Positions 1-61,862 of a DNA stretch of 63,380 nt are shown here, piece by piece (position 1 is the first letter of the stretch; every line of letters starts with the position of its first letter). Source of the DNA: Bacteroidales bacterium UBA1182 (GTDB lineage Bacteria > Bacteroidota > Bacteroidia > Bacteroidales > Bacteroidaceae); assembly GCA_002310015.1 (NCBI GenBank), contig DBYQ01000058.1, positions 1 through 63,380 on the forward strand, written 5' to 3'. Below the pieces are notes generated by a model. The model was given only the letters and a program-made list of their open reading frames with translations, made no database searches and was not told the origin of the DNA. The translations under genes and the position numbers were made by a program.

Positions 1-509
1 AGGCTTATGTGGATAATCTTAATAAGCTGCTGCCTGGAAGCGGGCTTTCTGAGGATTTGTCGCTGGAGGAGATTGTGTGCAAGGCTAATCCGGCTGGTGG
101 CGTATCGGCCAATCAGGGGGTTTTTAATAATGCGGGGCAGATACTTAACCATAATCTTTATTTTACGCAGTTCTGCAAGGGTGGTAAGGCGCTGGCGGAT
201 GGCGCTCTCAAGGCTCAGATTGTTAAGCAGTGGGGCGGCGTGGAGGCGTTCCAAGCGGAGTTCGTGGCCAAGGGCGTGGGTTTGTTTGGCAGCGGATGGG
301 TGTGGCTGTCCCGTGATGCCGATGGATCACTCGTGATTACGCAGGAGTCGGGCGCTTCTAACCCAGTTGTGCACGGTCTCAAGCCGTTGCTTACGTTCGA
401 TGTCTGGGAGCACGCCTACTACCTTGATTATCAGAACCGCCGAGCCGCCCATCTGGATGCCCTCTGGCAGATCCTGGATTGGAGTGTGATAGAAAAACGT
501 TATAAATAG
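1..509 (+). CDS. sodB: Fe/Mn superoxide dismutase, 5' end cut by window edge
   Basis: Frame is open from the window start. Motifs NNAGQILNHNLYF, GSGWVWL and DVWEHAYYLDYQNRR are typical of Fe/Mn SOD. Stop TAG at 507-509. Confidence 0.9.
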   Translation, partial: AYVDNLNKLLPGSGLSEDLSLEEIVCKANPAGGVSANQGVFNNAGQILNHNLYFTQFCKGGKALADGALKAQIVKQWGGVEAFQAEFVAKGVGLFGSGWVWLSRDADGSLVITQESGASNPVVHGLKPLLTFDVWEHAYYLDYQNRRAAHLDALWQILDWSVIEKRYK

Positions 510-580
510 TACCATTGGGGTCTGTCCCCTTTGGTATCATTTTTGAAAAAAAGTACCAAAGGGGACAGACCCCAATGGTA
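510..580. repeat. REP doublet (two inverted units, ACCA variant)
   Basis: taccattggggtctgtcccctttggta (510-536) and gtaccaaaggggacagaccccaatggta (553-580) are perfect reverse complements separated by a tcatttttgaaaaaaa spacer. Confidence 0.9.
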
Positions 581-596
581 TCATTTTTGAGATATT

Positions 597-1049
597 ATGC
601 TGAAAGTTGGAGATAAGATGCCTCAGTTTGAGGTGGTGGACCAAGATGGTCAGGTGGTTCGGTCATCGGACTTTATAGGGAATGGCCGCAAGACGATTGT
701 GTATTTTTACCCCAAGGACAACACGTCGGGCTGCACGGCCGAGGCGTGCTCGTTCCGCGATAATTACGCAGCGCTGACGGCTGCGGGGTACAACGTGGTG
801 GGGGTTAGCAAGGATTCTGCAAAGTCGCACACGGGTTTCCGCGCCAAGTATGAGCTGCCGTTTAGGCTGTTGGCCGATACCTCTACGGAGATGCTGCAGG
901 CGTTTGGAGCTTGGGGCGAGAAGAAGATGTACGGCAAGACTGTTCTGGGCACTTTGCGCCGGACTTTTATCTTTACTGAGGATGGCATCCTGGAGCGCAT
1001 CATCGAGAAAGTTGACACCAAGAATGCTGCAGAACAGGTGCTAAAATGA
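597..1049 (+). CDS. bcp: thiol peroxidase / peroxiredoxin Bcp
   Basis: FYPKDNTSGCTAEACSFRD peroxidatic Cys motif. 150 aa. The TGA stop lies in the REP flank aaaatgataca. Confidence 0.85.
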   Translation: MLKVGDKMPQFEVVDQDGQVVRSSDFIGNGRKTIVYFYPKDNTSGCTAEACSFRDNYAALTAAGYNVVGVSKDSAKSHTGFRAKYELPFRLLADTSTEMLQAFGAWGEKKMYGKTVLGTLRRTFIFTEDGILERIIEKVDTKNAAEQVLK

Positions 1050-1120
1050 TACAATTGGGGTCAGACCCCTTTTGTATCATTTTTGAAAATAGTACAAAAG
1101 GGGTCTGACCCCAATTGTAC
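1049..1120. repeat. REP doublet (REPIN-like)
   Basis: atacaattggggtcagaccccttttgtat (1049-1077) and gtacaaaaggggtctgaccccaattgtac (1092-1120) are in inverted orientation with a catttttgaaaata spacer. Confidence 0.9.
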
Positions 1121-1132
1121 TATTTTGTGGAG

Positions 1133-2516: not shown

Positions 2517-2528
2517 ATGATACAAAAG

Positions 2529-2602
2529 TGTACCAAAGGGGACAGACCCCAATGGTATCATTTTTTGAAAATAGTACAAAAGGGGTCTGACCCCAATTGT
2601 AC
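2529..2602. repeat. two REP units in direct orientation
   Basis: tgtaccaaaggggacagaccccaatggta (2529-2557) and gtacaaaaggggtctgaccccaattgtac (2574-2602). Confidence 0.9.
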
Positions 2603-2610
2603 TATTTTGC

Positions 2611-2623: not shown

Positions 2624-3853
2624 ATGAAAGAGGAGCAGATTTTAATTCGGATTACGGGACAGGACCGGCCGGGACTGACGGCGGCGGTCATGGGGATTTT
2701 GGCAAAGTATGATGCTACGGTGCTGGACATCGGCCAGGCTGATATTCATAACACGCTGTCATTGGGCATTTTGATGCGTATGGACGAGATGAAGAGCGGC
2801 CTTGCTATGAAGGAGCTGCTGTTCAAGGCTACGGAGCTGGGCGTGAATATCGGTTTTTCTCCGATTAGCGACGATGAGTATGAGGATTGGGTAGGGCATC
2901 AGGGTAAGAACCGGTATATTTTGACTGTGCTGGGGCGTCAGCTTGAGGCTCGGCAGATTCAGGCAGCTACTCAAATTCTTGCTGATCAGGGGCTTAATAT
3001 TGATTCTATTCTTCGTCTTACGGGTCGGAAAAGTATTAAAAAACTTGATAAGCAGACGCGTGCTTGCATTGAATTTTCTTTGCGCGGCGAGCCGGTGGAC
3101 AGGCAGAAGATGCATGTTGAGCTGATGAAGATTTCGCAGCAGATGGAGATGGATTTCTCTTTCCAGAAGGACGATATGTTCCGCAGGATGAGGCGGTTAA
3201 TCTGTTTTGATATGGATTCTACGCTCATTCAGGCGGAGTGCATTGACGAATTGGCTGAGCGCAATGGCGTGGGTGCCCAGGTTCGCGCTATTACTGAGAG
3301 CGCGATGCGCGGTGAGATTGATTTCAAGGAGAGTTTTACTCGTCGTGTGGCGTTGCTTAAAGGACTGGATGTCAGTGTGATGCGTGATATTGCTGAGCAT
3401 CTGCCTATGACTGAGGGTGTGGACCGTCTGATGTCAGTTTTGAAGACTTGCGGGTATAAGATTGCTATTCTTTCTGGTGGATTTACGTTCTTTGGCGAGT
3501 ATCTGCAACGGCGTTATGGCATTGATTATGTGTACGCTAACGAGCTTGAGATAGGCGAGGACGGTAAATTGACCGGGCGATATGTGGGTGAGATTGTGGA
3601 TGGGCACAGGAAAGCTGAGTTGCTGCATCTGATTGCTCAGGTGGAGAAGGTGAATCTGGCTCAGACTATTGCTGTGGGCGATGGTGCAAATGCCCTGCCG
3701 ATGATCTCTGAGGCTGGTTTGGGAATTGCGTTCCATGCAAAACCGCGCGTTGTGGCCAATGCAGGGCAGAGTATCAATACCATCGGCCTTGATGGCGTTC
3801 TCTATTTCCTTGGCTTCAAGGATTCCTACCTTGGTGAGCAGGGCAAACTTTAA
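2624..3853 (+). CDS. serB: phosphoserine phosphatase SerB with N-terminal ACT-like domains
   Basis: HAD motif FDMDSTLI and GDGANALPMISEAGLGIAFHAKP. The N-terminal half is regulatory. Confidence 0.85.
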   Translation: MKEEQILIRITGQDRPGLTAAVMGILAKYDATVLDIGQADIHNTLSLGILMRMDEMKSGLAMKELLFKATELGVNIGFSPISDDEYEDWVGHQGKNRYILTVLGRQLEARQIQAATQILADQGLNIDSILRLTGRKSIKKLDKQTRACIEFSLRGEPVDRQKMHVELMKISQQMEMDFSFQKDDMFRRMRRLICFDMDSTLIQAECIDELAERNGVGAQVRAITESAMRGEIDFKESFTRRVALLKGLDVSVMRDIAEHLPMTEGVDRLMSVLKTCGYKIAILSGGFTFFGEYLQRRYGIDYVYANELEIGEDGKLTGRYVGEIVDGHRKAELLHLIAQVEKVNLAQTIAVGDGANALPMISEAGLGIAFHAKPRVVANAGQSINTIGLDGVLYFLGFKDSYLGEQGKL

Positions 3854-3857
3854 AAAA

Positions 3858-3887
3858 GGTACCAAAGGGGTCAGACCCCAATGGTAC
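3858..3887. repeat. single REP unit
   Basis: ggtaccaaaggggtcagaccccaatggtac between convergent serB and the 3887-4639 ORF. The TAG stop of the minus-strand ORF overlaps its flank. Confidence 0.9.
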
Positions 3888-4639
3888 TATTTTTTGTTGT
3901 GTTCACGCCAGAATTTGTAAAGTTCCTCTCTTTCTTGTTTTATGGTTTCAACTGATGGGACATATCCTTTATTTTCATAGTATCGGAGCATTTCATCAAG
4001 ATAGTAATGTGATTTAGATTCGGTCTCATAGTCTATCTGATTCATGAAACGGGCTTTTTCAAGCAAGAACTCACGATACCGATTGATGCGTTCAAAAAGT
4101 TCTTTCGGTTTGGTATGTATGGTGATTGATGGATTTCCACAATCTCTTGCGAAAGTGATTTCTTTAATGTAGAAATAGTCACAATCTAGTGCGGCTTTTA
4201 CAAATTCGAAAATAAGGGTGTCGCCTGGATGAGGAACGGCGGGAAGTCCGAAACTGAAAGAACATGTTCGGCCATACTCAAAACCGGAAAACAGGAAGGT
4301 GCAGAGATTTTCACCTTCTGATGCAAATAATTGTGGCTTGGAATAGTTCAATTCAAACAGATCCTTATAGATGAGTGGAAGCCATTTGTTGATATTTTGA
4401 GGTGTTTCATTCAGCCTCTCTGCAATCCATTTAATGGTTAATTCCCTCTCCCTAGCTTCGCAAATGTCAGAATACCAATATTCAGCAATCTGAATAAAGC
4501 CTTCAATTATGTGCTCGTAAGGCTTTCCCTGCCCACTCAATAACCTGAGCCAGCGCGCCTCACTAAACAGACAGAATTTGATCTGTTTGTTTTTGGGGAC
4601 GTAATTCTCCAAAGCTGGGCAATCCATCTTTAAATCCAT
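3887..4639 (-). CDS. hypothetical protein (possible HTH segment), low-GC orphan
   Basis: 250-aa ORF with no family I recognise. ELTIKWIAERLNETPQNINKWL looks helix-turn-helix-like. The DNA is visibly more AT-rich than its neighbours. Confidence 0.5.
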   Translation of the reverse strand: MDLKMDCPALENYVPKNKQIKFCLFSEARWLRLLSGQGKPYEHIIEGFIQIAEYWYSDICEARERELTIKWIAERLNETPQNINKWLPLIYKDLFELNYSKPQLFASEGENLCTFLFSGFEYGRTCSFSFGLPAVPHPGDTLIFEFVKAALDCDYFYIKEITFARDCGNPSITIHTKPKELFERINRYREFLLEKARFMNQIDYETESKSHYYLDEMLRYYENKGYVPSVETIKQEREELYKFWREHNKK

Positions 4640-5244: not shown

Positions 5245-5265
5245 CGCTCACAAAGATACAAAATG

Positions 5266-5337
5266 ATACAAAAGGGGTCAGACCCCAATTGTATCATTTT
5301 TGAAAATAGTACAATTGGGGTCTGACCCCTTTTGTAC
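5266..5337. repeat. REP doublet immediately upstream of the RAYT-like gene
   Basis: atacaaaaggggtcagaccccaattgtat (5266-5294) and gtacaattggggtctgaccccttttgtac (5309-5337), in inverted orientation. Confidence 0.9.
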
Positions 5338-5345
5338 TTTTTTTA

Positions 5346-5353
5346 TATCTTTG
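5346..5353 (+). promoter_or_regulatory. candidate -7 box TATCTTTG
   Basis: TAnnTTTG match 27 nt upstream of the ATG at 5380. Confidence 0.45.
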
Positions 5354-5379
5354 CGATATAATCAATTTGTTTGCAAACC

Positions 5380-6192
5380 ATGGCACGAAAATTAAGATTG
5401 GCCAGCGATTCTGGCATTTACCATGTGATTCTGCGCGGGGTGAACCGGCAGGACATTTTCGAGAACGAGAAAGATTTTCTCAAGTTTTTGAGTCTGATGG
5501 AGCGCTTGGCGTTTCCGGTGGATGAGACTGGGCATCGGGTTCCTCCTTTGCTGGTCATTTACGCTTATTGCCTGATGCCTAATCATGTGCATCTGCTGCT
5601 TAGGGAACAGCCCGGAATGTTGGTATCGGACGCAATAAAGTGGATATCAGGCACTTATGCGGGTTATTTTAATTTAAAGTACGAGCATGTTGGGCACCTT
5701 TTTCAGGACCGTTTCAGGAGTGAGGTGGTGAATGATTGGGAGTATTTTGTGACTTTGTTGCGGTACATTCATCAGAATCCGGTGGCTGGAGGGCTGGCGG
5801 ACAATGTGAGGTATTACAGGTGGAGCAGTTGGCGCGAGTATGATCCGGAGATGGTTTGTGATGTTCCGATATGTGCGACTCAGGCTGTTTTCACTAAGAT
5901 TTCGTTCGATGCGCTGGAGGAATTGGTTGATACGCCGCTGCCAAAAACGCAGAGAATTCTGGATTTTGATAGCGATTCCGGGAGGCGGGTGACCGATGAG
6001 AGGTTGCGTGAGTATATTAAGGCGGAGTTTGGGATTGCGGAAGTGCCTGCTATTCAGCATCTTGAGAAGGAGAAACGGAATGAGATTGTAAAAAAACTGC
6101 TGGAGTTTTGTGGAAATGTGATGCAGATTTCTCGCGTGACCGGTATCAGCCGCGGGGTTATCAGCAGGCTCAATAGAGCAATTGGGGTCTGA
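5380..6192 (+). CDS. IS200-like Y1 (HUH) transposase, REP-associated tyrosine transposase (RAYT)-like, with C-terminal HTH
   Basis: HUH motif in YCLMPNHVHLLL and catalytic Tyr context LLRYIHQNPV. C-terminal NVMQISRVTGISRGVISRL looks like an HTH. No TnpB gene or IS ends seen. The last codons and the stop lie inside a REP unit. Confidence 0.8.
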   Translation: MARKLRLASDSGIYHVILRGVNRQDIFENEKDFLKFLSLMERLAFPVDETGHRVPPLLVIYAYCLMPNHVHLLLREQPGMLVSDAIKWISGTYAGYFNLKYEHVGHLFQDRFRSEVVNDWEYFVTLLRYIHQNPVAGGLADNVRYYRWSSWREYDPEMVCDVPICATQAVFTKISFDALEELVDTPLPKTQRILDFDSDSGRRVTDERLREYIKAEFGIAEVPAIQHLEKEKRNEIVKKLLEFCGNVMQISRVTGISRGVISRLNRAIGV

Positions 6193-6325
6193 CCCCTTTT
6201 GCATCATTTTTTGAAAAATAGAGCAATTGGGGTCTGACCCCAATTGCACGTTTTTTGTATATTTGCGTGATGAATTCGAGTAAAATAGTACAAAAGGGGT
6301 CTGACCCCAATTGCACCAATTGCAC
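6176..6325. repeat. three REP units downstream of the RAYT-like gene
   Basis: gagcaattggggtctgaccccttttgc (6176-6202), gagcaattggggtctgaccccaattgcac (6221-6248) and gtacaaaaggggtctgaccccaattgcac (6288-6316), followed by a duplicated caattgcac. Confidence 0.9.
6258..6265 (+). promoter_or_regulatory. candidate -7 box TATATTTG
   Basis: TAnnTTTG match between REP units, upstream of manA. Confidence 0.35.
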
Positions 6326-6332
6326 ATATCCG

Positions 6333-7355
6333 ATGCTGTTTGAGCCGAACCTGCACACGGTGGTGTGGGGCGGGGAGCGGTTGTGCCGATGGAAGGGGCT
6401 TCCGGAGCAGGACCATGTGGGCGAGAGCTGGGAGGTGAGCGCTGTAGAGAGTTCGCCTTCAGTTGTTGCTAATGGTTCATGGACAGGGAAAACACTTCCG
6501 GAGGTGGTGGCATCGGCCCCAGAGGAGATTCTGGGCAAGGCTGTGGCTAGGCGTTACGGCGGACGGATGCCTCTGCTGGTGAAGTTTATCGACGCACGGA
6601 ATGATCTGAGCATTCAGGTTCACCCCAATGATGAGATGGCTCTGCGCGAGCATAACAAGCTGGGTAAGAGCGAGATGTGGTATGTTTTGGATGCTGAGCC
6701 GGGGGCTTGTATTTATGCTGGTTTCAAGAAGAAGCTTGGGGCCGATGAGTACAAGCGGATGGTGGAGGATGGGACTATCACTGAGGCACTTGCGCGGCAT
6801 GAGGCGCATGCGGGTGATGTTTTTTACATTCCGGCGGGGCGTGTGCATGCCATTTGCTGTGGAATATTATTGGCCGAGATTCAGCAGTCATCGGACGTAA
6901 CTTATAGGATATTTGACTATAACAGGTTGGGGCTGGACGGCAAGCCGCGCGAACTCCATACTGCCTATGCTGCTCAGGCACTTAACTACAAGGTGGAGCG
7001 GAAATACAGGACTGATTATGCGGTGCGGAATGACCGGGCGAACCTGATTATGGAGTCTAAGTTCTTTAGCGCCCGCGTGACGGAGGTGGATCATGAGTTT
7101 CATCGGAATCTGCTTAAATACGACAGTTTTATCATTACGATGTGCCTCAAGGGCGATTGTGTGATTAAGGTGCGTGCTACTGGTGATGAGGTGATTTTGA
7201 AGGAGGGGTTCAGTTGCTTGATTCCGGCGGCGGTTGCGGACTATGATATCAGGCCTGTTGGGGGTTCCTGCAAGGTTTTGGATGCGTTTATTGATAATCA
7301 GCGGGGAGGTTTGATGAATAGGATTCATCGGCTTTTCCACAAGAACAAATATTGA
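6333..7355 (+). CDS. manA: mannose-6-phosphate isomerase, class I
   Basis: GESWEVS, PLLVKFIDARNDLSIQVHPND, GKSEMWYVL, AGRVHAI and SSDVTYRIFDYNR. The start is uncertain: the ATG at 6270 would read through a REP unit in frame. Confidence 0.85.
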   Translation: MLFEPNLHTVVWGGERLCRWKGLPEQDHVGESWEVSAVESSPSVVANGSWTGKTLPEVVASAPEEILGKAVARRYGGRMPLLVKFIDARNDLSIQVHPNDEMALREHNKLGKSEMWYVLDAEPGACIYAGFKKKLGADEYKRMVEDGTITEALARHEAHAGDVFYIPAGRVHAICCGILLAEIQQSSDVTYRIFDYNRLGLDGKPRELHTAYAAQALNYKVERKYRTDYAVRNDRANLIMESKFFSARVTEVDHEFHRNLLKYDSFIITMCLKGDCVIKVRATGDEVILKEGFSCLIPAAVADYDIRPVGGSCKVLDAFIDNQRGGLMNRIHRLFHKNKY

Positions 7356-7370
7356 AAATTAAGCAAAATG

Positions 7371-7445
7371 ATACCATTGGGGTCTGTCCCCTTTGGTATC
7401 ATTTTCAAAAAAAACAGTACAAAAGGGGTCTGACCCCAATTGTAT
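7371..7445. repeat. REP doublet
   Basis: ataccattggggtctgtcccctttggtat (7371-7398) and gtacaaaaggggtctgaccccaattgtat (7417-7445), inverted. Confidence 0.9.
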
Positions 7446-7466
7446 CATTTTTTAGAGAAAAGAGAT

Positions 7467-8516
7467 ATGGCAAATCATGTGGTAATTATGGCGGGGGGTA
7501 TCGGGAGTAGATTCTGGCCCCTGAGTACTCCGGAGTTTCCTAAGCAATTTATTGATATTCTGGGTTGTGGACGGTCGCTGATTCAGCTGACTGTGGACCG
7601 GTTCAAGGGTATTTGCCCATCGGAAAACTTTTGGGTGGTGACTAACAAGGATTACGTGGATATTGTTAAGCAGCAGATTCCTGGTATTCCTTTAAAGCAT
7701 ATTTTAGCTGAGCCAGCGGCGCGAAATACGGCTCCGTGCATTGCCTGGGCGTGCTGGAGCATTAAGGAGGAGGATCCTGATGCAAATGTTGTCGTTACTC
7801 CCAGCGATGCGGTTGTAATGAACCCTGAGGAGTTCAGGCGCGTGATATCGGGCGCATTGGAGTTTACATCGGGCCACGACTTTATCGTGACTATCGGAAT
7901 CAAACCGAATAGGCCGGAAACTGGGTATGGTTATGTAAAAACGGTACAAAAGGGGTCTGACCCCAATTGTATCATTTTGGTGGAGGAGTTTAAGGAGAAG
8001 CCGGATCTGGAGACGGCTAAGAGGTATTTGGCGGATGGAAATTACCTTTGGAATGCGGGGATTTTTGTGTGGAATGTGAAGACGATTACCGATTCTATCA
8101 GGGCTTATAAGCCGATTTTGGCGGGGCAGATGGATAAAATGATACAAAAGGGGTCTGACCCCAATTGTACTGTTTTGGAGATTTTCCCGACTTGTGAGAA
8201 GATTTCTATTGACTATGCGGTGATGGAGCCGGCTGCTGCTGAGGGGAAGGTTTATACTTTTCCGGCGGATTTTGGGTGGAGCGATCTGGGGAACTGGCAG
8301 TCGCTGCATGAAAAGTTGCAGAAGGATGCGGATAATAATGCATCGGTGGGTAATGTACATTTCTATGAATCAAGCAATTGCGTGGTTCATGTTGAGGACG
8401 CCAAGAAGGTTGTGATTCAGGGATTGGACGGGTATATTGTATCGGAAAAGGGGGGACAAATTCTGATTTGCAAGCGTAGCGAGGAGCAGCGCATTAAAGA
8501 GTTTGGAGCAAAATGA
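7467..8516 (+). CDS. manC: mannose-1-phosphate guanylyltransferase
   Basis: VIMAGGIGSRFWPLS, ETGYGYV, FKEKPDLETAKRYL and SIDYAVMEP. The ORF contains two REP units in frame. The TGA stop lies in a REP flank. Confidence 0.85.
   Translation: MANHVVIMAGGIGSRFWPLSTPEFPKQFIDILGCGRSLIQLTVDRFKGICPSENFWVVTNKDYVDIVKQQIPGIPLKHILAEPAARNTAPCIAWACWSIKEEDPDANVVVTPSDAVVMNPEEFRRVISGALEFTSGHDFIVTIGIKPNRPETGYGYVKTVQKGSDPNCIILVEEFKEKPDLETAKRYLADGNYLWNAGIFVWNVKTITDSIRAYKPILAGQMDKMIQKGSDPNCTVLEIFPTCEKISIDYAVMEPAAAEGKVYTFPADFGWSDLGNWQSLHEKLQKDADNNASVGNVHFYESSNCVVHVEDAKKVVIQGLDGYIVSEKGGQILICKRSEEQRIKEFGAK
7944..7972. repeat. REP unit inside manC coding sequence
   Basis: gtacaaaaggggtctgaccccaattgtat is identical (29/29) to the intergenic copy at 7417-7445. 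It is translated as VQKGSDPNCI. Confidence 0.9.
8142..8170. repeat. REP unit inside manC coding sequence
   Basis: atacaaaaggggtctgaccccaattgtac with the aaaatg/tgtttt flanks seen at intergenic copies. It is translated as IQKGSDPNCT. Confidence 0.9.
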
Positions 8517-8690
8517 TGCAATTGGGGTCTGACCCCTTTTGCACTTGTCATTTTCAAAAAAAACAGTACAAAAGGGGTCTGACCCCAATTGTATCATTTT
8601 CAAAAAAAAACAGTGCAAAAGGGGTCAGACCCCAATTGCACCAATGGCACATGCAAAAAGAGTACCAAAGGGGTCTGACCCCAATGGTAC
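8517..8690. repeat. cluster of four REP units
   Basis: Units at 8517-8544 (inverted form) and at 8566-8594, 8613-8641 and 8662-8690 (direct form), including GTGC and ACCA variants. Confidence 0.9.
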
Positions 8691-8715
8691 TTTTTTAATT
8701 TTAAATAATTATGAT

Positions 8716-19168: not shown

Positions 19169-21598
19169 ATGACTCTGAGGGAACTTAAGATAGGTGAGAG
19201 TGCTGTGATTGCCTCGGTTGGAGGTGAGGGGGCACTGAGGCAGCATTTTCTGGATATGGGGTTGCTGCCGGGCGTGGAGGTTAAGCTTTTGAAGTTTGCT
19301 CCGATGGGTGATCCGATGGAGCTTCTGGTTCGCGGATACACTCTTTCTCTCCGTCTTGAAGAAGCATCTCAAATTACAGTTGACGCACCGGATGGCAGCC
19401 AACAGCCCGAAAAAACAGTACCAAAGGGGTCTGACCCCAATGGTACTGTTTTTGAAAAAAAGGTACCATTGGGGTCAGACCCCTTTGGTACTGTTTTGGT
19501 CGATTTTGGGTATAATTTGTCTTTGCATGAGCATAACTCTCATCCGGGTTTGGGTGAGGCTGGTAAGTATCATGATGCTACTCATGAGAATGCGGTTCCT
19601 AAGGGTACGGTGTTGAGGTTTGCTTTGGCCGGTCAGCAGAATTGCGGCAAGACTACCTTGTTTAATCAGCTTACGGGTTCTAATCAGCATGTGGGTAATT
19701 TCCCGGGTGTGACTGTAGATAGAAAGGATGGGCAGATTAAGGGGCATCCGGATACTCTTGTCACAGACTTACCTGGTATATATTCTTTATCGCCTTACAC
19801 GCAGGAGGAGACGGTTTCACGCCAGTTCATTATTGAGCAGAAGCCTAACTGCATTATCAATATCGTCGATGCTACAAACATTGAACGCAACCTGTATCTG
19901 ACGGTTCAGCTCATGGAGCTGGGTGTGCCTATGGTGCTGGCTCTCAATATGATGGACGAGCTGACGGGTAATGGCGGATCGGTCCGCGTGAATGAGATGG
20001 AGCGAATCCTGGGTATTCCGGTGGTTCCGATATCGGCCGCAAAGGGCGAGGGTATCAAGGAGCTTGTGGAGCACGCCATTCATGTGGCTGAGTATCAGGA
20101 GGTTCCGGCCAGGACCGATTTCTGCACAAAGGATGATCACGGGGGTGCTGTTCACCGTTGCCTGCACAGCATAATGCATCTGGTTGAGGACCACACCGAA
20201 AGGGCTGGCATTCCGGGCCGATTCGCAGCCGGCAAGCTTGCTGAGGGCGATGCTCAAGTGCTTGAACAGCTACAACTTACACAGAACGAGAAAGAAACGA
20301 TGGAACACATAATCCTGCAGATGGAGGAGGAGCGTGGGATGGACCGCGCGGCTGCCATTGCAGATATGCGTTTCTCGTTTATTGAGCGCCTTTGCTCGCA
20401 GACGGTTGTCAAGCCGCAGAAGAGCAAAGAGTATATAAGGAGTCGCCGCATTGACCGCGTTCTGACCGGCCGATGGACAGCAATTCCAATCTTCCTGATA
20501 GTGATGTGCCTGGTGATATGGCTCTCAATCGATGTGTTGGGTGCACCGCTGCAGGATTGGCTTGACCAGCTGATTCAGGGCCTGGCAGGCATCTGTGTGG
20601 CTGGTATGGAGAAGGCCGATATTTCACCTGCAATCATATCGCTTGTTGAGGATGGCATTTTTGGCGGCGTGGGAAGCGTGCTGAGCTTTGTGCCTATCAT
20701 CATAATCCTGTTCTTCTTCCTTAGTCTGATTGAGGACAGCGGATATATGGCACGTATCGCGTTTGTGACCGATAAGCTGCTGCGTAAACTGGGTCTGTCG
20801 GGTCGTTCTATCGTGCCGTTGCTCATCGGCTTTGGCTGTTCTGTTCCGGCGGTTATGGCCACTAGAACGTTGCCATCGGCCCGTGACAGAAAGATGACCA
20901 TTCTGCTCACTCCGTTTATGAGCTGCAGCGCCAAGATTCCTATTTACGGATTCTTTACCAATGCGTTTTTCCCGGGCAAGGGCGGTCTGATTCTGGCCGG
21001 CTTGTACCTGCTGTCGATATTTGTAGGCGTGATTGTGGCGCTGGTGACCAAACTTTTCCGCAAGAATTACGTGGCTGCGCCGTTTGTGATGGAGCTGCCC
21101 AATTACCGCATGCCGGGACTCAAGAATGTGAGCCATCTGCTTTGGGACAAGACGAAGGACTTTGTGCAGAGGGCGTTCACGGTGATATTCGTGGCGACGA
21201 TCGTGATTTGGCTGCTGCAGACGTTTGATTTCCGATTCAATATGGTGGAGAACGGCGAGGGTAGCATGATGGCCTGGGTTGCTGGCGTGCTGGAGCCGCT
21301 GTTCCGTCCGCTGGGCCTTGGCGATTGGCGCATTGTTACCTCTTTTGTAAGCGGTTTCCTGGCTAAGGAGAGCGTGGTTGCTACGATGGAGGTGCTTGGC
21401 GTGACCGAGTCGCTGACTGTTATTACCGCTGTTCCGATGCTCATATTTAGCCTGCTCTACACGCCTTGCGTTGCTGCAATCAGCAGCGTTCGCCGCGAAC
21501 TTGGTGACAGGTGGGCAATCTATGTCGTAATCTTCCAGTGCGTCATCGCCTGGGTTGTGGCTTGGTTTGGTTATTTAATAGCACAGGCAGTATTATGA
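19169..21598 (+). CDS. feoB: ferrous iron transporter, FeoA-FeoB fusion
   Basis: The N-terminal FeoA domain ends ...LRLEEASQITV. FeoB G-domain LAGQQNCGKTTLFNQLTG and NFPGVTVD, followed by the polytopic membrane part. A REP doublet sits in frame in the linker. Confidence 0.9.
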   Translation: MTLRELKIGESAVIASVGGEGALRQHFLDMGLLPGVEVKLLKFAPMGDPMELLVRGYTLSLRLEEASQITVDAPDGSQQPEKTVPKGSDPNGTVFEKKVPLGSDPFGTVLVDFGYNLSLHEHNSHPGLGEAGKYHDATHENAVPKGTVLRFALAGQQNCGKTTLFNQLTGSNQHVGNFPGVTVDRKDGQIKGHPDTLVTDLPGIYSLSPYTQEETVSRQFIIEQKPNCIINIVDATNIERNLYLTVQLMELGVPMVLALNMMDELTGNGGSVRVNEMERILGIPVVPISAAKGEGIKELVEHAIHVAEYQEVPARTDFCTKDDHGGAVHRCLHSIMHLVEDHTERAGIPGRFAAGKLAEGDAQVLEQLQLTQNEKETMEHIILQMEEERGMDRAAAIADMRFSFIERLCSQTVVKPQKSKEYIRSRRIDRVLTGRWTAIPIFLIVMCLVIWLSIDVLGAPLQDWLDQLIQGLAGICVAGMEKADISPAIISLVEDGIFGGVGSVLSFVPIIIILFFFLSLIEDSGYMARIAFVTDKLLRKLGLSGRSIVPLLIGFGCSVPAVMATRTLPSARDRKMTILLTPFMSCSAKIPIYGFFTNAFFPGKGGLILAGLYLLSIFVGVIVALVTKLFRKNYVAAPFVMELPNYRMPGLKNVSHLLWDKTKDFVQRAFTVIFVATIVIWLLQTFDFRFNMVENGEGSMMAWVAGVLEPLFRPLGLGDWRIVTSFVSGFLAKESVVATMEVLGVTESLTVITAVPMLIFSLLYTPCVAAISSVRRELGDRWAIYVVIFQCVIAWVVAWFGYLIAQAVL
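19418..19491. repeat. REP doublet inside the feoAB coding sequence
   Basis: gtaccaaaggggtctgaccccaatggtac (19418-19446) and gtaccattggggtcagacccctttggtac (19463-19491). Translated as VPKGSDPNGTVFEKKVPLGSDPFGTV. Confidence 0.9.
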
Positions 21599-21732
21599 AC
21601 GCCGCAACCATAATAGCAATCATCGCCATAACAGGACTGGTCGTAGTCGCTGTCATCGGCGCAATAAACAATCGCAAGAAGGGAAACTCCTGCTGCGGCT
21701 GCTCTATGAAAGATTGCTGCAACAAGAAATGA
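21595..21732 (+). CDS. FeoB-associated Cys-rich membrane protein
   Basis: 45 aa: one TM helix, then KKGNSCCGCSMKDCCNKK. Its ATG overlaps the feoB TGA (ATGA). Its stop lies in a REP flank. Confidence 0.65.
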   Translation: MNAATIIAIIAITGLVVVAVIGAINNRKKGNSCCGCSMKDCCNKK

Positions 21733-21805
21733 TACAAAAGGGGTCAGACCCCAATTGCATCATTTTTGAAAAATAGTGCAATTGGGGTCTGACCCCTTTT
21801 GTATC
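21732..21805. repeat. REP doublet between convergent genes
   Basis: atacaaaaggggtcagaccccaattgcat (21732-21760) and gtgcaattggggtctgaccccttttgtat (21777-21805). Confidence 0.9.
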
Positions 21806-23187
21806 ATTTCTTCAACATCATCAGGATGGTAAGGGATAATATTTGCACCTAGGACGCGGTTGGCGGTGGGGGTGATTAGGATGTCGTCTTCTATTCGGAT
21901 TCCTCCGAAATCTATGTAGTTTTCTATTGCTTGGTAATTCATGAAGTCTTTGTGCATATGTTCTGCGCGCCATTTGTCTATCAGGGCGGGGATGAAGTAG
22001 ATGCCGGGCTCATCGGTTAGGACGAAGCCGGGCTGGAGGCGCTTGCCGTAGCGGAGGCAGTTGGTTCCGAACTGATTAGAGGGCTGGACTTCTTCATCAA
22101 AGCCTACGTAGTTCTGGCCCAGGGCTTCCATATCGTGTACGTCCATGCCCATCATGTGGCCAAGGCCGTGCTGCATGAAGAGGGCGTGTGCTCCGGCGGC
22201 GACGGCGTCATCAGTATTGCCGCGCATGAGGCCCAGGTCCTTGAGGCGGTCAGTCATGAGGCGGCAGACGTCCAGGTGCATGTCTAGCCATCGCATGCCG
22301 GGATGGGCTTTCTCGATGACGAGGTCATGACACGCCTCTACGATGGAGTAGATATCCAGCTGCTTGCTGGTGAACTTACCGCTGACGGGCATGGTTCGGG
22401 TGTTGTCACTGCAGTAGTTGTTGACGGTTTCGGCGCCGGCATCAACCAGGAGGAGGCGTCCAGGCTCAAGAGGCTTCATAGAGGGGCCACCATGAAAGAT
22501 CTCGCCGTGCATGGTTACTATGCTGTTGAACGATACTTTGGCTCCCTGGCCCATGGCAATGCCCTCCATAATACCTGCAATTGATTTCTCAGTCACGCCA
22601 GGGCGGCAGTGTTTCATGGCGGCGCAGTGCATCTGGTAACCTATGGCCATAGCGCGCTCAATCTCTGCAACCTCACCATCGGATTTTATGGAGCGCATGC
22701 TTACAACGGCCTTGATAAGTTCTACCGATGCGGCATCGCGGGTTTGGAGCGGGTGGATGCCTAGCATATCGGACAAGAGGATCATGTGGTCATGACGGTA
22801 GGGGGGCAGGAAGTGTATTTTACGGCCCAGGCGACGGGCATCGGCCACCAGATCCTTTAGTTTGCTGTATGGGGCACTGTTCTGTATGCCGCAATCAGCA
22901 GCCATATCTGCAACGGAGGGTACGAATCCGGTCCAGATGATATCATCGAGGTCAATATCATCACCCAGAAGCCATTCCTGACCGCTGTCGGCATCGATTA
23001 CTGCGGCAAGTGATTCGCGCTGCTGACCTGTAAAATAGAGGAATGTGCTGTCCTGACGGAAGGTGTAGGCGTTTGAGGGGTAGTTGCATGGAGCGTCATT
23101 GTTACCAAGCAGGATAATTAGGCCATTGCCAATTTTCTCTCTCAGAACGCTGCGGCGATGAGAATATGTTTTCTTATCAAATAGCAT
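21760..23187 (-). CDS. Xaa-Pro aminopeptidase (aminopeptidase P, M24B)
   Basis: HGLGHMMGMDVHD, EPGIYF and GGIRIEDD metal-ligand blocks. The C-terminal [17 protein letters not shown] is encoded by the REP doublet. Confidence 0.85.
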   Translation of the reverse strand: MLFDKKTYSHRRSVLREKIGNGLIILLGNNDAPCNYPSNAYTFRQDSTFLYFTGQQRESLAAVIDADSGQEWLLGDDIDLDDIIWTGFVPSVADMAADCGIQNSAPYSKLKDLVADARRLGRKIHFLPPYRHDHMILLSDMLGIHPLQTRDAASVELIKAVVSMRSIKSDGEVAEIERAMAIGYQMHCAAMKHCRPGVTEKSIAGIMEGIAMGQGAKVSFNSIVTMHGEIFHGGPSMKPLEPGRLLLVDAGAETVNNYCSDNTRTMPVSGKFTSKQLDIYSIVEACHDLVIEKAHPGMRWLDMHLDVCRLMTDRLKDLGLMRGNTDDAVAAGAHALFMQHGLGHMMGMDVHDMEALGQNYVGFDEEVQPSNQFGTNCLRYGKRLQPGFVLTDEPGIYFIPALIDKWRAEHMHKDFMNYQAIENYIDFGGIRIEDDILITPTANRVLGANIIPYHPDDVEEMIQKGSDPNCTIFQK

Positions 23188-42357: not shown

Positions 42358-42371
42358 ATTTCATCATTTTA

Positions 42372-42400
42372 GTACAAAAGGGGTCAGACCCCAATTGTAT
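42372..42400. repeat. single REP unit
   Basis: gtacaaaaggggtcagaccccaattgtat between the acyl-CoA ligase stop and the thioesterase start. The ligase TGA stop lies in its tcatttt flank. Confidence 0.9.
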
Positions 42401-44025
42401 CATTTTTTGTTTTTGTCTTGGTAGAGGAAGCGGCGGATCTTGTGCGTGGCGGTCTTGTTGAAGGGTTCTTTCATGACCTCTACGTCCTTGATCTTGAGGA
42501 AATGGCTCACCTTGGAGTTGACAAATTCCATCACCTCTTTCTTGCGGCGCTCTATGTTTTCAAGGAACTTTTCCTGTCCCTCCAGATTCCAGTCAACAGC
42601 GCCCTCGTTGAACTGGACAAGAGCTACAAGCTGTCCGGCGCGGCTTATTACGAGTGATTCATTCACGTCCGATATCTTGTTGATGACGCTCTCTATCTCC
42701 TCAGGGTAGATGTTCTCGCCCGATGCGCCTATGATTACGTTGCCTGATCGGCCCAGGATGGAGTATCGGCCCTTCTTGTCCATGGTGGCGATATCACCGG
42801 TGCGCATCCAGCCGTCATCAGTCATTACGGCACGGGTACGGGCGTAATCCTTGTAGTATCCCAGCATTACGTTGGGCCCTTTTACCTGCAGTTCGCCCTG
42901 ACCGGTCTCCGGGTTGACATCGGCCAGACGTACCTGCACCTCATATGATGCGGTGCCTGTAGTACCCAGATGTGTGCGCTTGGGGCCGGCATCGCATATC
43001 AGCGGGGCGGTCTCAGTGAGGCCGTAGCCTATTGCGTAGGGGAACTTGATGTTGCGCAGGAACTCCTCAACCTCGCGGTCCAGCTTGGAGCCGCCTATGC
43101 CAAAGAAACGTACGCGGCCGCCAAACTGCTGCTTTACCTTCTTGCCTACCAGGAAGTAGAGTATACGTGGGAAGTGTTTCTTGAGGTAGCGCAGGTACTT
43201 GCTGCCGGCTATTGTGGGGAATATCTTGCCGCGGATGACCTTCTCGATGATGAGTGGTACCGATAATATCGTGGTGGGGCGTATCTTGAGCAGAGCCTGG
43301 CTCAGTATGGTGGGAGTGGGAGGCTTCTGGATGTAATAGACGGGGCAGCCGGTGGAGAGCGGATAGAGCATGCCTATGCTCATCTCGTATGTATGGGCCA
43401 GCGGCAGGATGGACAGGAATACGTCCTTGCGGCGATATACCTTGTGCGCATACCATGCCTCAAGCACGTTGTGGCAGAAGTTGCGGTGGCTCAGCATCAC
43501 GCCTTTGGCATTACCTGTGGTGCCCGATGTGTAGATGATGGCGGCAATATCAGTGGCATCGGGTACTTTACTGCGTCCATCGCATGTATAGCTCTCATCC
43601 TCAGCTTTGATAAGGTCAAATGTGCTGATATCTATTATGATATTCAGGCGGTTATATGATTCTCTACTTATCTTGAGGAGTTGTTTTTGGCTTACGAATG
43701 CGGCCTTTGCTTCAGAGTGGACTAGGATATTCTCAACCTCATTTGGTGAAAGATCAGGTAACATGGGCACTGCAATTCGGCCGTGTGCTGTTATTGCGAA
43801 GAAGGCTACTGCCCAGTTGGGCATGTTCTCTGAGAGGATGGCTACCTTATCGGCCGGATTGAGTCCGAATGTGCCAAGCAGGCCTGACAGCTGATCGGCC
43901 TTGTCCCTGAACTGTGAGTATGTGTAGCTGCAGCCACCGTCCACAAAATCCGATGCAAGGCGGTTGCGGTTTACGTTTGTTGTGTATTCAAGCAGATCGG
44001 CAAGTGTTGTGAATCTGTGTCTCAT
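42400..44025 (-). CDS. long-chain fatty acid--CoA ligase (AMP-binding)
   Basis: AIIYTSGTTGNAKGVMLSHRN AMP-binding motif, GYGLTE and TGDIA. Confidence 0.85.
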   Translation of the reverse strand: MRHRFTTLADLLEYTTNVNRNRLASDFVDGGCSYTYSQFRDKADQLSGLLGTFGLNPADKVAILSENMPNWAVAFFAITAHGRIAVPMLPDLSPNEVENILVHSEAKAAFVSQKQLLKISRESYNRLNIIIDISTFDLIKAEDESYTCDGRSKVPDATDIAAIIYTSGTTGNAKGVMLSHRNFCHNVLEAWYAHKVYRRKDVFLSILPLAHTYEMSIGMLYPLSTGCPVYYIQKPPTPTILSQALLKIRPTTILSVPLIIEKVIRGKIFPTIAGSKYLRYLKKHFPRILYFLVGKKVKQQFGGRVRFFGIGGSKLDREVEEFLRNIKFPYAIGYGLTETAPLICDAGPKRTHLGTTGTASYEVQVRLADVNPETGQGELQVKGPNVMLGYYKDYARTRAVMTDDGWMRTGDIATMDKKGRYSILGRSGNVIIGASGENIYPEEIESVINKISDVNESLVISRAGQLVALVQFNEGAVDWNLEGQEKFLENIERRKKEVMEFVNSKVSHFLKIKDVEVMKEPFNKTATHKIRRFLYQDKNKK

Positions 44026-44868: not shown

Positions 44869-44887
44869 GCTCACTGGGAGAGATATG

Positions 44888-44959
44888 ATACAATTGGGGA
44901 CAGACCCCTTTTGTATCATTTTCGAAAATAGTACAAAAGGGGTCTGACCCCAATTGTAT
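44888..44959. repeat. REP doublet
   Basis: atacaattggggacagaccccttttgtat (44888-44916) and gtacaaaaggggtctgaccccaattgtat (44931-44959), inverted. Confidence 0.9.
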
Positions 44960-44969
44960 CATTTTTGTT

Positions 44970-59268: not shown

Positions 59269-59282
59269 ATTTTTCAAAAATA

Positions 59283-59311
59283 GTACAAAAGGGGTCTGAC
59301 CCCTTTTGTAT
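59283..59311. repeat. single REP unit, fully symmetric variant
   Basis: gtacaaaaggggtctgaccccttttgtat has AAAA/TTTT on both sides, so the palindrome is near perfect. It lies between the mutS2 stop and the nfo start. Confidence 0.9.
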
Positions 59312-59315
59312 CATT

Positions 59316-61862
59316 TTAGCCTAAATCTACGACTGTAATGCCATGGCCGCCAAACTGTATATGCTCGTCATGATAATCTTTGACGGCAGGTACAGTATGC
59401 AGATACTGGCGTATCAGGTTGCGCAGTATGCCGTTACCGGTGCCATGAAGGATACGCACGCGGCTCATGCCTATAAGCGTGGCGTCATCAATAAAGTGCA
59501 TCACAGTCTGGATAGCCTCATCACCACGCATACCACGTACGTCAATATCCGGTTTGAAAGCCAGTTTACGGTTGTATATGTCATCGTGGGTCTGCTTGCT
59601 TACGTATGTAGCGGAACGCACATCCTGCGTCTTTACGGCCTCGGCAGGCTCCAGACGGTTAGCCTTTACTATGCTGGTAATATGCCCGAAAGCTACCGTA
59701 ATGTCATTCTTATTGATTGAAATCACATCACCAACCTGAGTCTGACCGATAAGACGGACTGTGTCACCAATTTTGAATGACTGCTTGGGGGAACTCTTTA
59801 ATTGAGAATTGAGAGTTGAGAATTGAGAATTATCTGAATTATCTGAATTCTGTGCTGATTCCAGCTTCTGGTGGTGCAGGGCTTTGTCACGTTTGCGCTG
59901 TTCACGGCGTTCCTGACTCTGACGGATGCGCTCCATCTTACGCTGTATCTTGAGCTCCTCCTCGCTGTTCTGACGGTCATCAAGAGTATCCTTGAACTCT
60001 GTAAGTTCCTGGCGGGCCAGACGGGTAAGTTCCTTATCGGCCTGAGCCTCCTTGATGGTGCGAATGGTATTCTCAATCATGGCGTTGGAGTCCTGGATAA
60101 GCTGATCAGCCTTCTCCTTGGCTTCACGGATGATTGATTTACGTTCCTTTTGCAGTGATTCCAGCTCCTGACGGTGCTGTTCTATCTGCTGATCCAGCTG
60201 TTTTTCAAGCTGATGCACGTTCTGACGTTTGTTTTCCCAGTAACGCTTGTCGCGGACAATATCCTGCAGGTACTTGTCGGCATTAACGTAATCGCGTCCT
60301 ACAATCTGTGTGGCATCCTCAATGACATCCTCAGGAAGACCGATCTTGCGGGCTATCTCAACGGCAAATGAGCTGCCGGGATTACCTATTTGCAATATAT
60401 ATAGCGGCTGCATGAGATGACGGTCATAGAGCATGGCACCGTTACGTATGCCATCATTGCCATCAGCAAAGTGCTTGAGATTCTGATAATGTGTTGTTAT
60501 TATGCCAAATACGCGGTTGCGATTGAAACGTGCCAGAACAGCCTCAGCTATTGCGCCGCCAATGCCCGGCTCCGTTCCGCTTCCAAACTCATCTATAAGA
60601 ATGAGGCTGCGGTTATCGGCATTCTTAAGCATATTCTTCATGTTAAGCAGATGGCTGGAGTAGGTGCTCAGGTCATCATCTATGCTCTGCTCATCACCTA
60701 TATCAATGAATATGCTCTTGAATATGCCTGCGTGGCTGTTGGGACGCATCGGAACAGGTATTCCGCATTGGAGCATGTACTGCAGAAGGCCTACAGTCTT
60801 AAGACAGACGGATTTACCGCCTGCGTTGGGGCCCGATATAAGCAGTATGCTATTCTTGGAGTCAAGGTCTATGTCCAGTGGAACCACCGTCTTGTCATGT
60901 TTGGCAAGAGACTGCTTTAACAGCGGATGCACGGCCTGTACCCAGTCAACCATCGTCTTGCGTTCAAGAATGGGCTTACAGGCGTCAAAATCAAGAGCAA
61001 GGCGGGCTTTGGCACGTATGAAATCAATCTTGGCCATGAATCCGTATGATTCAAGTATGGACGGAATCTCCGGGCGTATGCTGTCTGTAAAAGAGATAAG
61101 GATACGTGTGACCTCACGCTTTTCATCGGCCTCAAGTTCACGTATGCGGTTATTGGCCTCAACAACCTCCTCAGGCTCGATGAAAACGGTCTTGCCCGAT
61201 GCCGATTCATCATGTACTATACCGCGTATCTTACGCTTTAATCCGGGCGCTACGGGCAGCACCAGACGGCCGTCACGCATGGTTGGAGCGGCATCTTTGT
61301 CAACTACACCGTCTGTCTGCGCCTGACGCAAAATGCTGTTCAGGATACGTGATATGCTGAAAGATGTGTTGGCCAGATCCATGCGGATGCGGTATAGTTC
61401 CGGTGATGCATTGTCCTTAAGCTTGCCGAACTTGGTAAGTATGCGGGCTATCCCTTGGGTAATAGTGGGGAATACAGCCACGCTGTCAGCAAGTTCCGTC
61501 AGATTGGGGTAGAGACCCTGGTTATCCTCCTTGGAGAGGAACTCCACAATGCCGCTTATTGTCTCAAGTGAGCGCCATAAACCAAGCAGTTCAGCCTCAT
61601 CAAGCCATGTGCCCATAACTTTGATGCGGGCCAGAGCCTCACGAAGGTCATGGTAGTTCTGATCAGGAAATGATTTGCCTTCAGTGAGTATCCTGACAAA
61701 CTCCATTGTCTCATCAAGAGCTTTTTCAATGGGCCCATAATCGGTCTGAAACTGCATTTCCTCAACCTGTTGCACGCCAAGCGGACAGATGCAACGGTCT
61801 GCAAGCATCTGCCTTATCTCATCAAAACCGGTCTTATGTTCAAAATTGTCAGGATAAATCAT
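59316..61862 (-). CDS. mutS2: endonuclease MutS2 (MutS domain V ATPase plus C-terminal Smr)
   Basis: Walker A ISGPNAGGKS and the IDEFGSGTEP block, a long coiled coil, and a C-terminal Smr domain (LHGTGNGILR). A heptamer array lies in frame before the Smr domain. Confidence 0.9.
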   Translation of the reverse strand: MIYPDNFEHKTGFDEIRQMLADRCICPLGVQQVEEMQFQTDYGPIEKALDETMEFVRILTEGKSFPDQNYHDLREALARIKVMGTWLDEAELLGLWRSLETISGIVEFLSKEDNQGLYPNLTELADSVAVFPTITQGIARILTKFGKLKDNASPELYRIRMDLANTSFSISRILNSILRQAQTDGVVDKDAAPTMRDGRLVLPVAPGLKRKIRGIVHDESASGKTVFIEPEEVVEANNRIRELEADEKREVTRILISFTDSIRPEIPSILESYGFMAKIDFIRAKARLALDFDACKPILERKTMVDWVQAVHPLLKQSLAKHDKTVVPLDIDLDSKNSILLISGPNAGGKSVCLKTVGLLQYMLQCGIPVPMRPNSHAGIFKSIFIDIGDEQSIDDDLSTYSSHLLNMKNMLKNADNRSLILIDEFGSGTEPGIGGAIAEAVLARFNRNRVFGIITTHYQNLKHFADGNDGIRNGAMLYDRHLMQPLYILQIGNPGSSFAVEIARKIGLPEDVIEDATQIVGRDYVNADKYLQDIVRDKRYWENKRQNVHQLEKQLDQQIEQHRQELESLQKERKSIIREAKEKADQLIQDSNAMIENTIRTIKEAQADKELTRLARQELTEFKDTLDDRQNSEEELKIQRKMERIRQSQERREQRKRDKALHHQKLESAQNSDNSDNSQFSTLNSQLKSSPKQSFKIGDTVRLIGQTQVGDVISINKNDITVAFGHITSIVKANRLEPAEAVKTQDVRSATYVSKQTHDDIYNRKLAFKPDIDVRGMRGDEAIQTVMHFIDDATLIGMSRVRILHGTGNGILRNLIRQYLHTVPAVKDYHDEHIQFGGHGITVVDLG
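59800..59849. repeat. heptamer array plus 9-mer duplication inside mutS2 coding sequence
   Basis: aattgagaattgagagttgagaattgagaatt followed by atctgaatt x2. Read on the minus strand it encodes NSDNSDNSQFSTLNSQL. Confidence 0.85.

Follow-up and report, generated by a model that had tools for sequence, protein, structure and literature searches.

A single-copy RAYT-like transposase gene and its repeats in an uncultured rumen Bacteroidales: a probable REP/RAYT-type system

Do a lone transposase gene and the palindromes on either side of it make up one system, or are they chance neighbors? The question is raised by a 63,380-nt stretch of DNA from Bacteroidales bacterium UBA1182, an organism of the bovine rumen (contig DBYQ01000058.1; hereafter the window), whose nearest named relatives are Bacteroidaceae and Bacteroidales metagenome-assembled genomes. 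A first-pass annotation had read the open reading frame (ORF) at 5380-6192 as a gene for a REP-associated tyrosine transposase (RAYT) lying among its own repetitive extragenic palindromes (REPs), with REP doublets (REPINs) as the mobilized unit. The reading favored here, at a probability of about 0.7, is a REP/RAYT-type (REPtron/TIRtron) system, in which a single-copy Y1 HUH transposase with a helix-turn-helix (HTH)-like tail is bracketed by copies of a non-autonomous repeat cognate to it. The annotation is thereby upheld in its essentials: the predicted fold is closest to that of structure 4ER8, 31 of 78 homolog loci carry an inverted flanking motif, and copies of the repeat occur at a great distance from the gene.

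The motifs on which the annotation relied, NHVHLL and YIHQNPV, are both present in the 270-aa product (Table 1). The former occupies aa 68-73, with H69 at nt 5584-5586 and H71 at nt 5590-5592, and the latter aa 129-135, with the catalytic-type tyrosine Y129 at nt 5764-5766; the Y1 domain spans aa 13-133, and an RWSSW serine motif follows the tyrosine motif. The protein matches Pfam Y1_Tnp above threshold (E=9.6e-13) and has 6,511 homologs, some close ones of which were named "REP element-mobilizing transposase RayT" by JGI. Conservation of the catalytic residues, on which the annotation had been staked, holds: H69, H71, Y129, Q132, N133 and P134 are invariant in 45 of 45 homologs with 51-91% identity. 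An AlphaFold (AF2) model with a pLDDT of 84 comprises a Y1 core and a predicted five-helix C-terminal HTH-like domain (aa 206-267, nt 5995-6180). Its top Foldseek match in the PDB is the E. coli REP-associated transposase (TnpA-REP) in complex with a REP hairpin (4er8_A; E=1.5e-7, TM 0.72 on the target), with IS608 and ISDra2 TnpA ranking behind. A phmmer search of the PDB gave marginal ISDra2 matches only and missed 4ER8, which was recovered by the fold search. In an hhalign comparison with E. coli RayT (E=6e-6), the aligned part runs from HUH to W.S and includes YIxxNPV..G..V; identity is ~24% over 85 residues.

The five 29-nt palindromes of the annotation were found around the gene, two upstream (5266-5294, 5309-5337) and three downstream (6176-6204, 6221-6249, 6288-6316), but they understate the repeat in both length and number. 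Allowing at most 3 mismatches, the 29-nt pattern matches 20 times in the window against 0.00 expected from shuffles, and its 13-nt core, GGGGTCWGACCCC, matches 28 times against 0.05 expected, so that the repeat is far from confined to the flanks of the gene. The flanks of all 28 cores define a unit of 41 nt, AAAAYRGTAC-AAAA-GGGGTCWGACCCC-AATT-GTAYYATTTT, of which the window holds 28 copies at 15 sites; a profile built from these recovers exactly the same 28 and no degenerate copies. The annotation had also placed the end of the gene inside a repeat, as is the case: the last 5 codons and the stop come from a REP unit, the TGA lying within the core GGGGTCTGACCCC at 6184-6196, and the protein ends in ..RLNRAIGV* instead of ..RLDK*.

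As single-stranded DNA (ssDNA), one unit forms a single hairpin (-13.7 to -14.1 kcal/mol, z ~ -7) interrupted by a 2x2 A.A internal loop, and units are oriented by virtue of this A.A mismatch. Of the nine window doublets, eight are inverted pairs 43-46 nt apart, each of which forms a long hairpin with almost no mismatches (-33 to -45 kcal/mol); such inverted pairs with a short spacer are the REPIN arrangement. For the doublet directly upstream of the gene, the result is an 84-nt hairpin (-32.7 kcal/mol, z = -10.8, as DNA). When 79 units of five related genomes were aligned, the positions without variation (A12, G15-18, C20, G22, C24-27 and T30) proved to form the apex, GGGGWC-W-GWCCCC, that is, two abutted inverted GGGGWSAS heads; the core in the window accordingly carries the GGGGWSAS motif on both strands. 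The lower stem covaries, with compensatory changes in 9 of 17 stem pairs and 110 double-change cells observed, compared to 40 +/- 8 in shuffles (reached in 0 of 500) and 17-34 in slid controls. No Rfam family matched the repeats at its gathering score, and the sub-threshold matches, all of them eukaryotic miRNA hairpin models that fit long palindromes, were rejected as not meaningful.

The pairing of gene and repeat recurs in relatives. Their loci, denoted by L-numbers, were compared with the window over flanks of up to 10 kb and stand at identities of 85% (L082), 80% (L083-86), 79% (L001), 71% (L087-89), 62% (L002) and 57% (L090). In every relative examined (L001, L002, L082 and L083-90) the gene is bracketed on both sides by its own genome's repeat, and homologs in Prevotellaceae (41-48% identity) and Clostridia (33-37%) are likewise flanked on both sides by repeats of their own. 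A homolog is also present in Xylanibacter ruminicola D31d, which has few repeats. The motif GGGG[AT][CG]N[CG], forward upstream and reversed downstream, was found at 31 of 78 loci in many phyla, against ~0.4 expected from background. The repeat type switches along with the protein lineage: the window has GGGGTCWGACCCC, L001 GGGGACWGTCCCC and L083 GGGGCCTGACCCC, the L087 repeat has an outer stem GTGA/TCAC in place of GTAC/GTAC, and L002 and L090 have ~90-nt REPINs of the form GCCATTGGGGACGGTTCCGTTTGGCxC..GxGCCAAACGGAACCGTCCCCAATGGC. Formally, the 41-nt unit of the window equals the L002/L090 REPIN minus its internal part, with the two GGGGWC heads then abutting; a like origin has been proposed for "double foot" REPs (PMC6006769). 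The relatives grade from flanking inverted repeats via ~90-nt REPINs to the 41-nt palindrome and offer a natural series in which to study how REPs arise from transposon ends. Two further repeat types were seen: a second subfamily in L082 (9891-10841, 13045-13085), whose RAYT-adjacent units have an outer stem GCCA/TGGC rather than GTAC, and a second palindrome, GGGGCACAAAGGGGACGGTTCTTTTTGTGCCCC, beside the main REPIN of L002 (3156-3341, 8205-8273, 11379, 16439).

It is very improbable that the repeats are host elements, such as bidirectional terminators, protein-binding or uptake sequences, beside which the gene merely landed, REPs being known insertion targets. A hairpin with an A-tract and a T-tract does resemble a bidirectional intrinsic terminator, most intergenic sites are at gene 3' ends, and several units abut boxes of the sequence TAnnTTTG, the Bacteroidetes -7 promoter consensus. 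Such elements would not be expected to change type with the protein lineage or to appear as GGGGWSNS-headed inverted repeats around homologs in differing phyla at the frequency given above, and inverted GGGGWSAS flanks are the published hallmark of the TIRYT transposases (PMC3733652).

Judged by its motifs, its architecture and the flanking motif, the protein best fits TIRYT / subclass 2.1 / Group 1, names from three published schemes; TIRYT (TIRtron) is probably equivalent to subclass 2.1 of TnpA-Y1 and to RAYT Group 1. TIRYT genes are flanked by inverted repeats with GGGGWSAS (Di Nocera et al. 2013, PMC3733652), and subclass 2.1 is characterized by NHVH, W[EQ]/FQ, Y[IV]HLNP or YIELNP, and SS (Table 1 of Quentin et al. 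2018, PMC6006769); a C-terminal HTH of the Bac_DnaA_C, HTH_23 or HTH_28 type is a further mark of the class. The UBA1182 protein and its locus share NHVH, FQ at the W position (HLFQDRF), SS (RWSSW), a predicted HTH-like tail, GGGGWSAS flanks, low copy number and a wide phyletic spread that includes Clostridia. Sub-threshold HTH matches in the C-terminal tail were to HTH_29 and HTH_5 in the window protein, and to HTH_23 in 6 and HTH_28 in 2 of the 45 homologs. Unlike subclass 2.1, the tyrosine motif is YIHQNP, the published signature of subclass 2.6 (PMC6006769), and the assignment to 2.1 is accordingly provisional. Unlike published Group 1, the gene is accompanied by a family of palindromic REPs and REPINs with a density of about one unit every 2-4 kb; subclass 2.1 is said to be without nearby REPs (PMC6006769), and abundant flanking repeats have been reported in Groups 2 and 3 only, flanking 16-mers of Group 1 reaching ~12 copies (Bertels et al. 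2017, PMC5581495). Moderately abundant terminal inverted repeat (TIR) families in dimers and clusters were noted by Di Nocera et al. (PMC3733652).

Three other classes fit less well or not at all. Subclass 2.6 / Group 5, the Bacteroidetes RAYTs, comprises proteins of ~179 aa with WQ, a 21-aa insert between alphaC and beta4, and flanking structures of an atypical kind (e.g., GCTAGCGCGAGCG..); with its 270 aa, FQ, HTH-like tail and a repeat unrelated to the Table S1 examples, the present protein agrees in the Y motif alone. A classical GTAG-REP RAYT (Group 2 / subclass 2.2) does not fit either, the protein having NHVH rather than DHLH, its repeats no GTAG head, and the NCBIfam model REP_Tyr_transpos (NF047646), the best of that collection, scoring 53 bits against a cut-off of 80. 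The annotation had spoken of an IS200-like-plus-HTH type; the HTH-like tail is indeed predicted, but the IS200 label does not stand. IS200/IS605 enzymes (IS608 and ISDra2 TnpA) have in common the Y1 HUH fold and, presumably, ssDNA hairpin-guided chemistry, whereas the present gene is single-copy with symmetric flanks and no TnpB, its tyrosine motif is YIHQNP and not Y[IV]ENQ, and transpos_IS200 (NF033573), with a cut-off of 55 bits, gives a score of only 18.

What RAYTs have in general is found here: a Y1 HUH fold, conserved HuH and Tyr residues with the latter in YIxxNP, the motif of the C-terminal extension, a low-copy, chromosomal, vertically inherited gene, and dispersed hairpins that also flank it. 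With E. coli RayT (YafM, TnpA-REP), the best structural match, the protein shares the HUH-YIxxNPV-W.S core and the gene shares its single-copy state between dispersed hairpin repeats (REP/BIME elements) that often form inverted pairs and lie mostly at gene 3' ends; E. coli RayT differs in having no C-terminal HTH tail, and its REPs have a 5' GTAG guide in place of the GGGGWC apex. The Pseudomonas REPIN-RAYT system (Group 3; Bertels and Rainey 2011, PMC3116915) likewise combines inverted doublets, which form long hairpins and serve as the unit, with a single-copy, vertically inherited RAYT and a homogeneous, lineage-specific and long-lived repeat population. It differs in RAYT group, repeat head and phylum; moreover, units of the present system can take the form of a 41-nt palindrome, collapsed and "double-headed", and a notable fraction of them is intragenic and in frame.

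The gene behaves as a resident of the chromosome. As the annotation had stated, it occurs once in the window, tblastn finding no second copy in the 63 kb, and there is one locus per genome in eight Bacteroidales species genomes (species-representative scan). Nor was a TnpB-like partner found, the flanking ORFs being either without Pfam match or PMI, and no IS200-type ends were found at the gene, whose flanks are symmetric. It lies directly upstream of PMI-ManC-Poly_export-Wzz (capsule export) in the window, L001, L083-86, L087-89 and L090; the position upstream of PMI-ManC-Poly_export is kept in five of six lineages (100, 80, 79, 71 and 57% protein identity), so that the location persisted even as protein identity fell to 57%. 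From these sequence comparisons the gene is best described as single-copy, vertically inherited and domesticated rather than like an insertion sequence (IS).

That the gene is instead an autonomous, selfish IS-like "TIRtron", of whose ends the dispersed repeats are derivatives like miniature inverted-repeat transposable elements, is unlikely. In L082 alone, the REP-gene-REP block (corresponding to window 5259-6211) lies ~6 kb from the usual position, which would suit a mobile gene, as would the distant homologs on plasmids and the published profile of Group 1, which is duplicated at a higher rate than any other of the non-IS-like groups 1-5 and is sometimes found on plasmids (PMC5581495). The relocated L082 block, though, is part of an array of gene blocks whose edges coincide with repeats, in a region where REP-bounded blocks are shuffled generally, and the single locus and fixed position described above do not favor an IS. 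In plasmid and phage collections the relatives had <40% identity only, with no close homolog, and viral contigs contained neither the repeat nor a close relative of the gene.

The repeats evolve together within each genome. Across seven orthologous sites in five genomes, similarity is 87.5% for units that occupy different sites within a genome and 76.5% for units that occupy orthologous sites of different genomes, the latter value being no better than the 76.0% of unrelated units (p=6e-10). Either the repeats of each genome are thus homogenized, or repeats are re-inserted where others had been. Signs of gain and loss were also seen. The first 3' unit of the window RAYT is absent in L180, whose gene ends in RRLDK* followed by the next REP; a single unit in L083 is a doublet in L084; and L083 has a 1.86-kb cassette, REP-DegT-REP-transporter-REP, that is missing precisely from L085 and ends at the outer arms of repeats. 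In an all-against-all comparison of 121 loci, filled and empty sites could be paired in three cases only, too few to define a target.

Several points weigh against a REP/RAYT-type system. The NCBIfam RAYT model stays under its cut-off, as given above, and the repeats are without the GTAG foot of classical REPs, the conserved part being GGGG.C.G.CCCC. Symmetric covariation would also be expected from a palindromic double-stranded binding site, and homogeneity within a genome could arise by gene conversion without a transposase. A difference in ManC between L083 and L086 (with and without repeats) looked like an excision and was rejected as a recombination mosaic. Finally, no repeat insertions or deletions were found between strain pairs 94-99.9% identical (97.8-99.9% over 12-20 kb), so that any activity is slow or has stopped.

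This last result is also what would be expected of a relic, in which the gene is kept for some other role in ssDNA processing or is not yet lost, and the repeats are immobile terminators or structural elements homogenized by gene conversion only. The occupation of the same sites across species fits such a relic as well, as do the many units at gene 3' ends, where the hairpin with its T-run was picked up by a terminator scan. It is nonetheless an improbable account, because orthologous sites hold radically different types (41-nt mini-palindrome versus ~90-nt REPIN, and the L087 stem), which do not easily arise from conversion without an amplifying master. Decayed copies are lacking in the window, the catalytic residues are conserved over deep divergence, and unit-number polymorphisms exist (L180, L083/L084).

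Hairpin-guided cleavage and rejoining of ssDNA by a tyrosine is established biochemistry for IS608 TnpA and E. coli TnpA-REP. By analogy, the enzyme of the REP/RAYT-type system proposed here would act in trans on single-stranded REP/REPIN units, with hairpin recognition centered, presumably, on the GGGGWC apex or GGGG head. Cleavage by Tyr129 at the HUH-bound metal site would give a 5'-phosphotyrosine intermediate, from which the DNA would be rejoined, and REP/REPIN units would be copied or replaced at a low rate. The HTH-like tail may have a DNA-binding or regulatory role. Repeated action of the enzyme, or gene conversion among units, would keep the repeats of a genome homogeneous, and units would survive in harmless positions, namely intergenic stretches, the ends of genes, and linkers or surface loops in which they can be read in frame.

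The last of these settings is well represented. Four window units lie in frame within coding sequences (two in ManC, and a doublet in the FeoAB linker), so that the repeats are not strictly "extragenic". The ManC gene spans 7467-8516, and its Pfam NTP_transferase domain extends across the in-frame units, which fall in loops that are variable when aligned to the T. maritima enzyme. Both loops hold the local repeat type in L001 (12463-12701), L082 (17888-18126) and L083 (12437-12675), loop 2 holds it in L090 (about 12660), and in L002 (ManC at 10146-11279) each loop contains a full REPIN doublet of ~25-30 aa within an intact 377-aa ORF. In the repeat-free ManC alleles (L086, L087), the loops vary in length and are hypervariable and unrelated in sequence. 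In-frame copies also occur in PMI of L002 (9039-10142) and L090 (about 11011). In the FeoAB gene (19169-21598), the Pfam domains FeoA (1-72) and FeoB_N (150-302) leave the in-frame doublet in the linker between them; two related metagenome contigs, L149 and L162, carry a doublet there too, but in direct orientation. Three window genes, encoding RAYT, ManC and an M24 peptidase, take their stop or C terminus from repeats. Annotated enzymes appear to gain "foreign" peptides from these repeats.

Intragenic REPs have been reported in other species (Di Nocera 2013, PMC3733652), as have the palindromic elements of Rickettsia, so that in-frame copies are not new in kind. Both precedents share the in-frame position in loops or linkers, with one frame per strand open. 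The difference is that here the repeats are tied to a RAYT-type gene, and the same sites (two loops in ManC, PMI, and the FeoAB linker) hold each genome's own type across lineages.

A bolder proposal, which we regard as tentative and doubtful, is that the RAYT of this rumen clade continually rewrites repeats in place, with new REP/REPIN variants homing to sites already occupied, so that orthologous sites, the ManC, PMI and FeoAB loops among them, would take on the current master sequence of each genome, and that it may also move DNA between repeats, its own gene included, so producing a shuffled array. If in-place rewriting were true, it would be a transposase-driven source of variation in protein loops. 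The region from AhpC to PMI looks like a REP-delimited array of shuffled cassettes. Between AhpC and RAYT/PMI, relatives hold differing genes (phytase-like, SerB, DegT, transporter, AbiEii, AAA ATPase and others). Shuffled blocks that are each bounded by repeats lie at 1043-5343 in the window, 6900-16200 in L082, 1650-9960 in L083, 3920-9960 in L085 and 5900-9900 in L090.

Dispersal of the repeat away from the gene is plain in metagenomes. A scan for the exact pattern returned at least 120 stretches, the first 80 of which (597 kb, from rumen metagenomes) were analyzed. These loci contain 164 units at 128 sites, 94 of them single, 33 double and one quadruple, so that singlets predominate in this sample. 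A RAYT homolog is present at one of the 80 loci, and 24 of the 164 units are within long open frames. Further in-frame copies were seen in rumen metagenome contigs L096 (CobB-like) and in L102 and L140 (Peptidase_M56-like); one M56 peptidase loop holds four units read in another frame (..TKGVRPQL..).

The annotation had supposed that such a system might be undescribed in this lineage. No Bacteroidales example of such repeats was found in the literature searched, but the enzyme class itself has been described (PMC3733652, PMC6006769), and JGI already applies the "RayT" label. The REPIN-RAYT partnership has been treated as a feature of Groups 2 and 3, mainly in Proteobacteria (PMC5581495), and the HTH-bearing subclass 2.1 as not REP-associated (PMC6006769). 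The locus and its relatives suggest that, in uncultured rumen Bacteroidales, a member or close neighbor of Group 1/2.1 has a REP/REPIN population that is dense and co-evolving. The REP/RAYT partnership would then extend to another enzyme subclass and to a lineage new to it.

Table 1. Transposase gene and repeat sites, in coordinates of the window.
Feature	Coordinates	Strand	Remarks
RAYT-like Y1 HUH tyrosine transposase gene	5380..6192	+	270 aa; ATG at 5380, TGA at 6190-6192
Inverted REP doublet	503..587		between SOD and AhpC genes
Inverted REP doublet	1043..1126		after AhpC; at synteny break vs L082
Direct REP doublet	2524..2608		before SerB-like gene
Single REP unit	3853..3893		between convergent genes
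Inverted REP doublet (5260-5300 + 5303-5343)	5260..5343		directly 5' of RAYT gene; REPIN-like
Three REP units (6170-6210, 6215-6255, 6282-6322)	6170..6322		3' of RAYT gene; first holds its stop
Inverted REP doublet	7365..7451		between PMI and ManC
REP unit in frame in ManC	7938..7978	+	loop after GYGYVK; encodes ..VQKGSDPNCIIL..
Second REP unit in frame in ManC	8136..8176	+	loop after QMDKM
Four-unit REP cluster	8510..8696		3' of ManC; first unit gives ManC stop (8514-8516)
Inverted REP doublet in frame, FeoA-FeoB linker	19412..19497	+	aa 82-110; DNA fold -44.9 kcal/mol
Inverted REP doublet	21726..21810		codes last 15 aa and stop of minus-strand M24 peptidase gene (21760-21810)
Single intergenic REP unit	42366..42406
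Inverted REP doublet	44882..44965		between divergent genes
Single REP unit, perfect palindrome variant (AAAA...TTTT)	59277..59317

The sites are unevenly distributed, 10 of the 15 (20 of the 28 units) falling within the 9 kb (1-9000) that surround the RAYT gene (P ~5e-6 by our own binomial estimate). This clustering could reflect local hopping or simply a variable region of short genes. Forward TAnnTTTG boxes are at 2611, 5346, 6258 and 44970, 3-5 nt past the end of a unit, and a fifth at 8716, 20 nt past the unit end; reverse boxes are at 5251 and 59275. The five forward boxes near units compare to ~0.45 expected from the density in the window. The distance between repeats and core promoters may be a fixed one, also in the case of the RAYT gene. 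The usual spacing between the Bacteroidetes -33 and -7 elements is 19-21 nt; the repeat as a source of the -33 element was rejected, the spacing from TTTG to TAnnTTTG being ~12 nt.

Between the 99.8% identical contigs L087 (at 16511) and L088 there is a 24-nt length difference in a tandem repeat of the hexamer ATGGTT, within a Wzz/GNVR-like capsule-chain-length gene. Many metagenome contigs that carry close homologs of the transposase are only 0.9-2.5 kb long, or about the length of the gene, which suggests that assemblies break at the flanking repeats.

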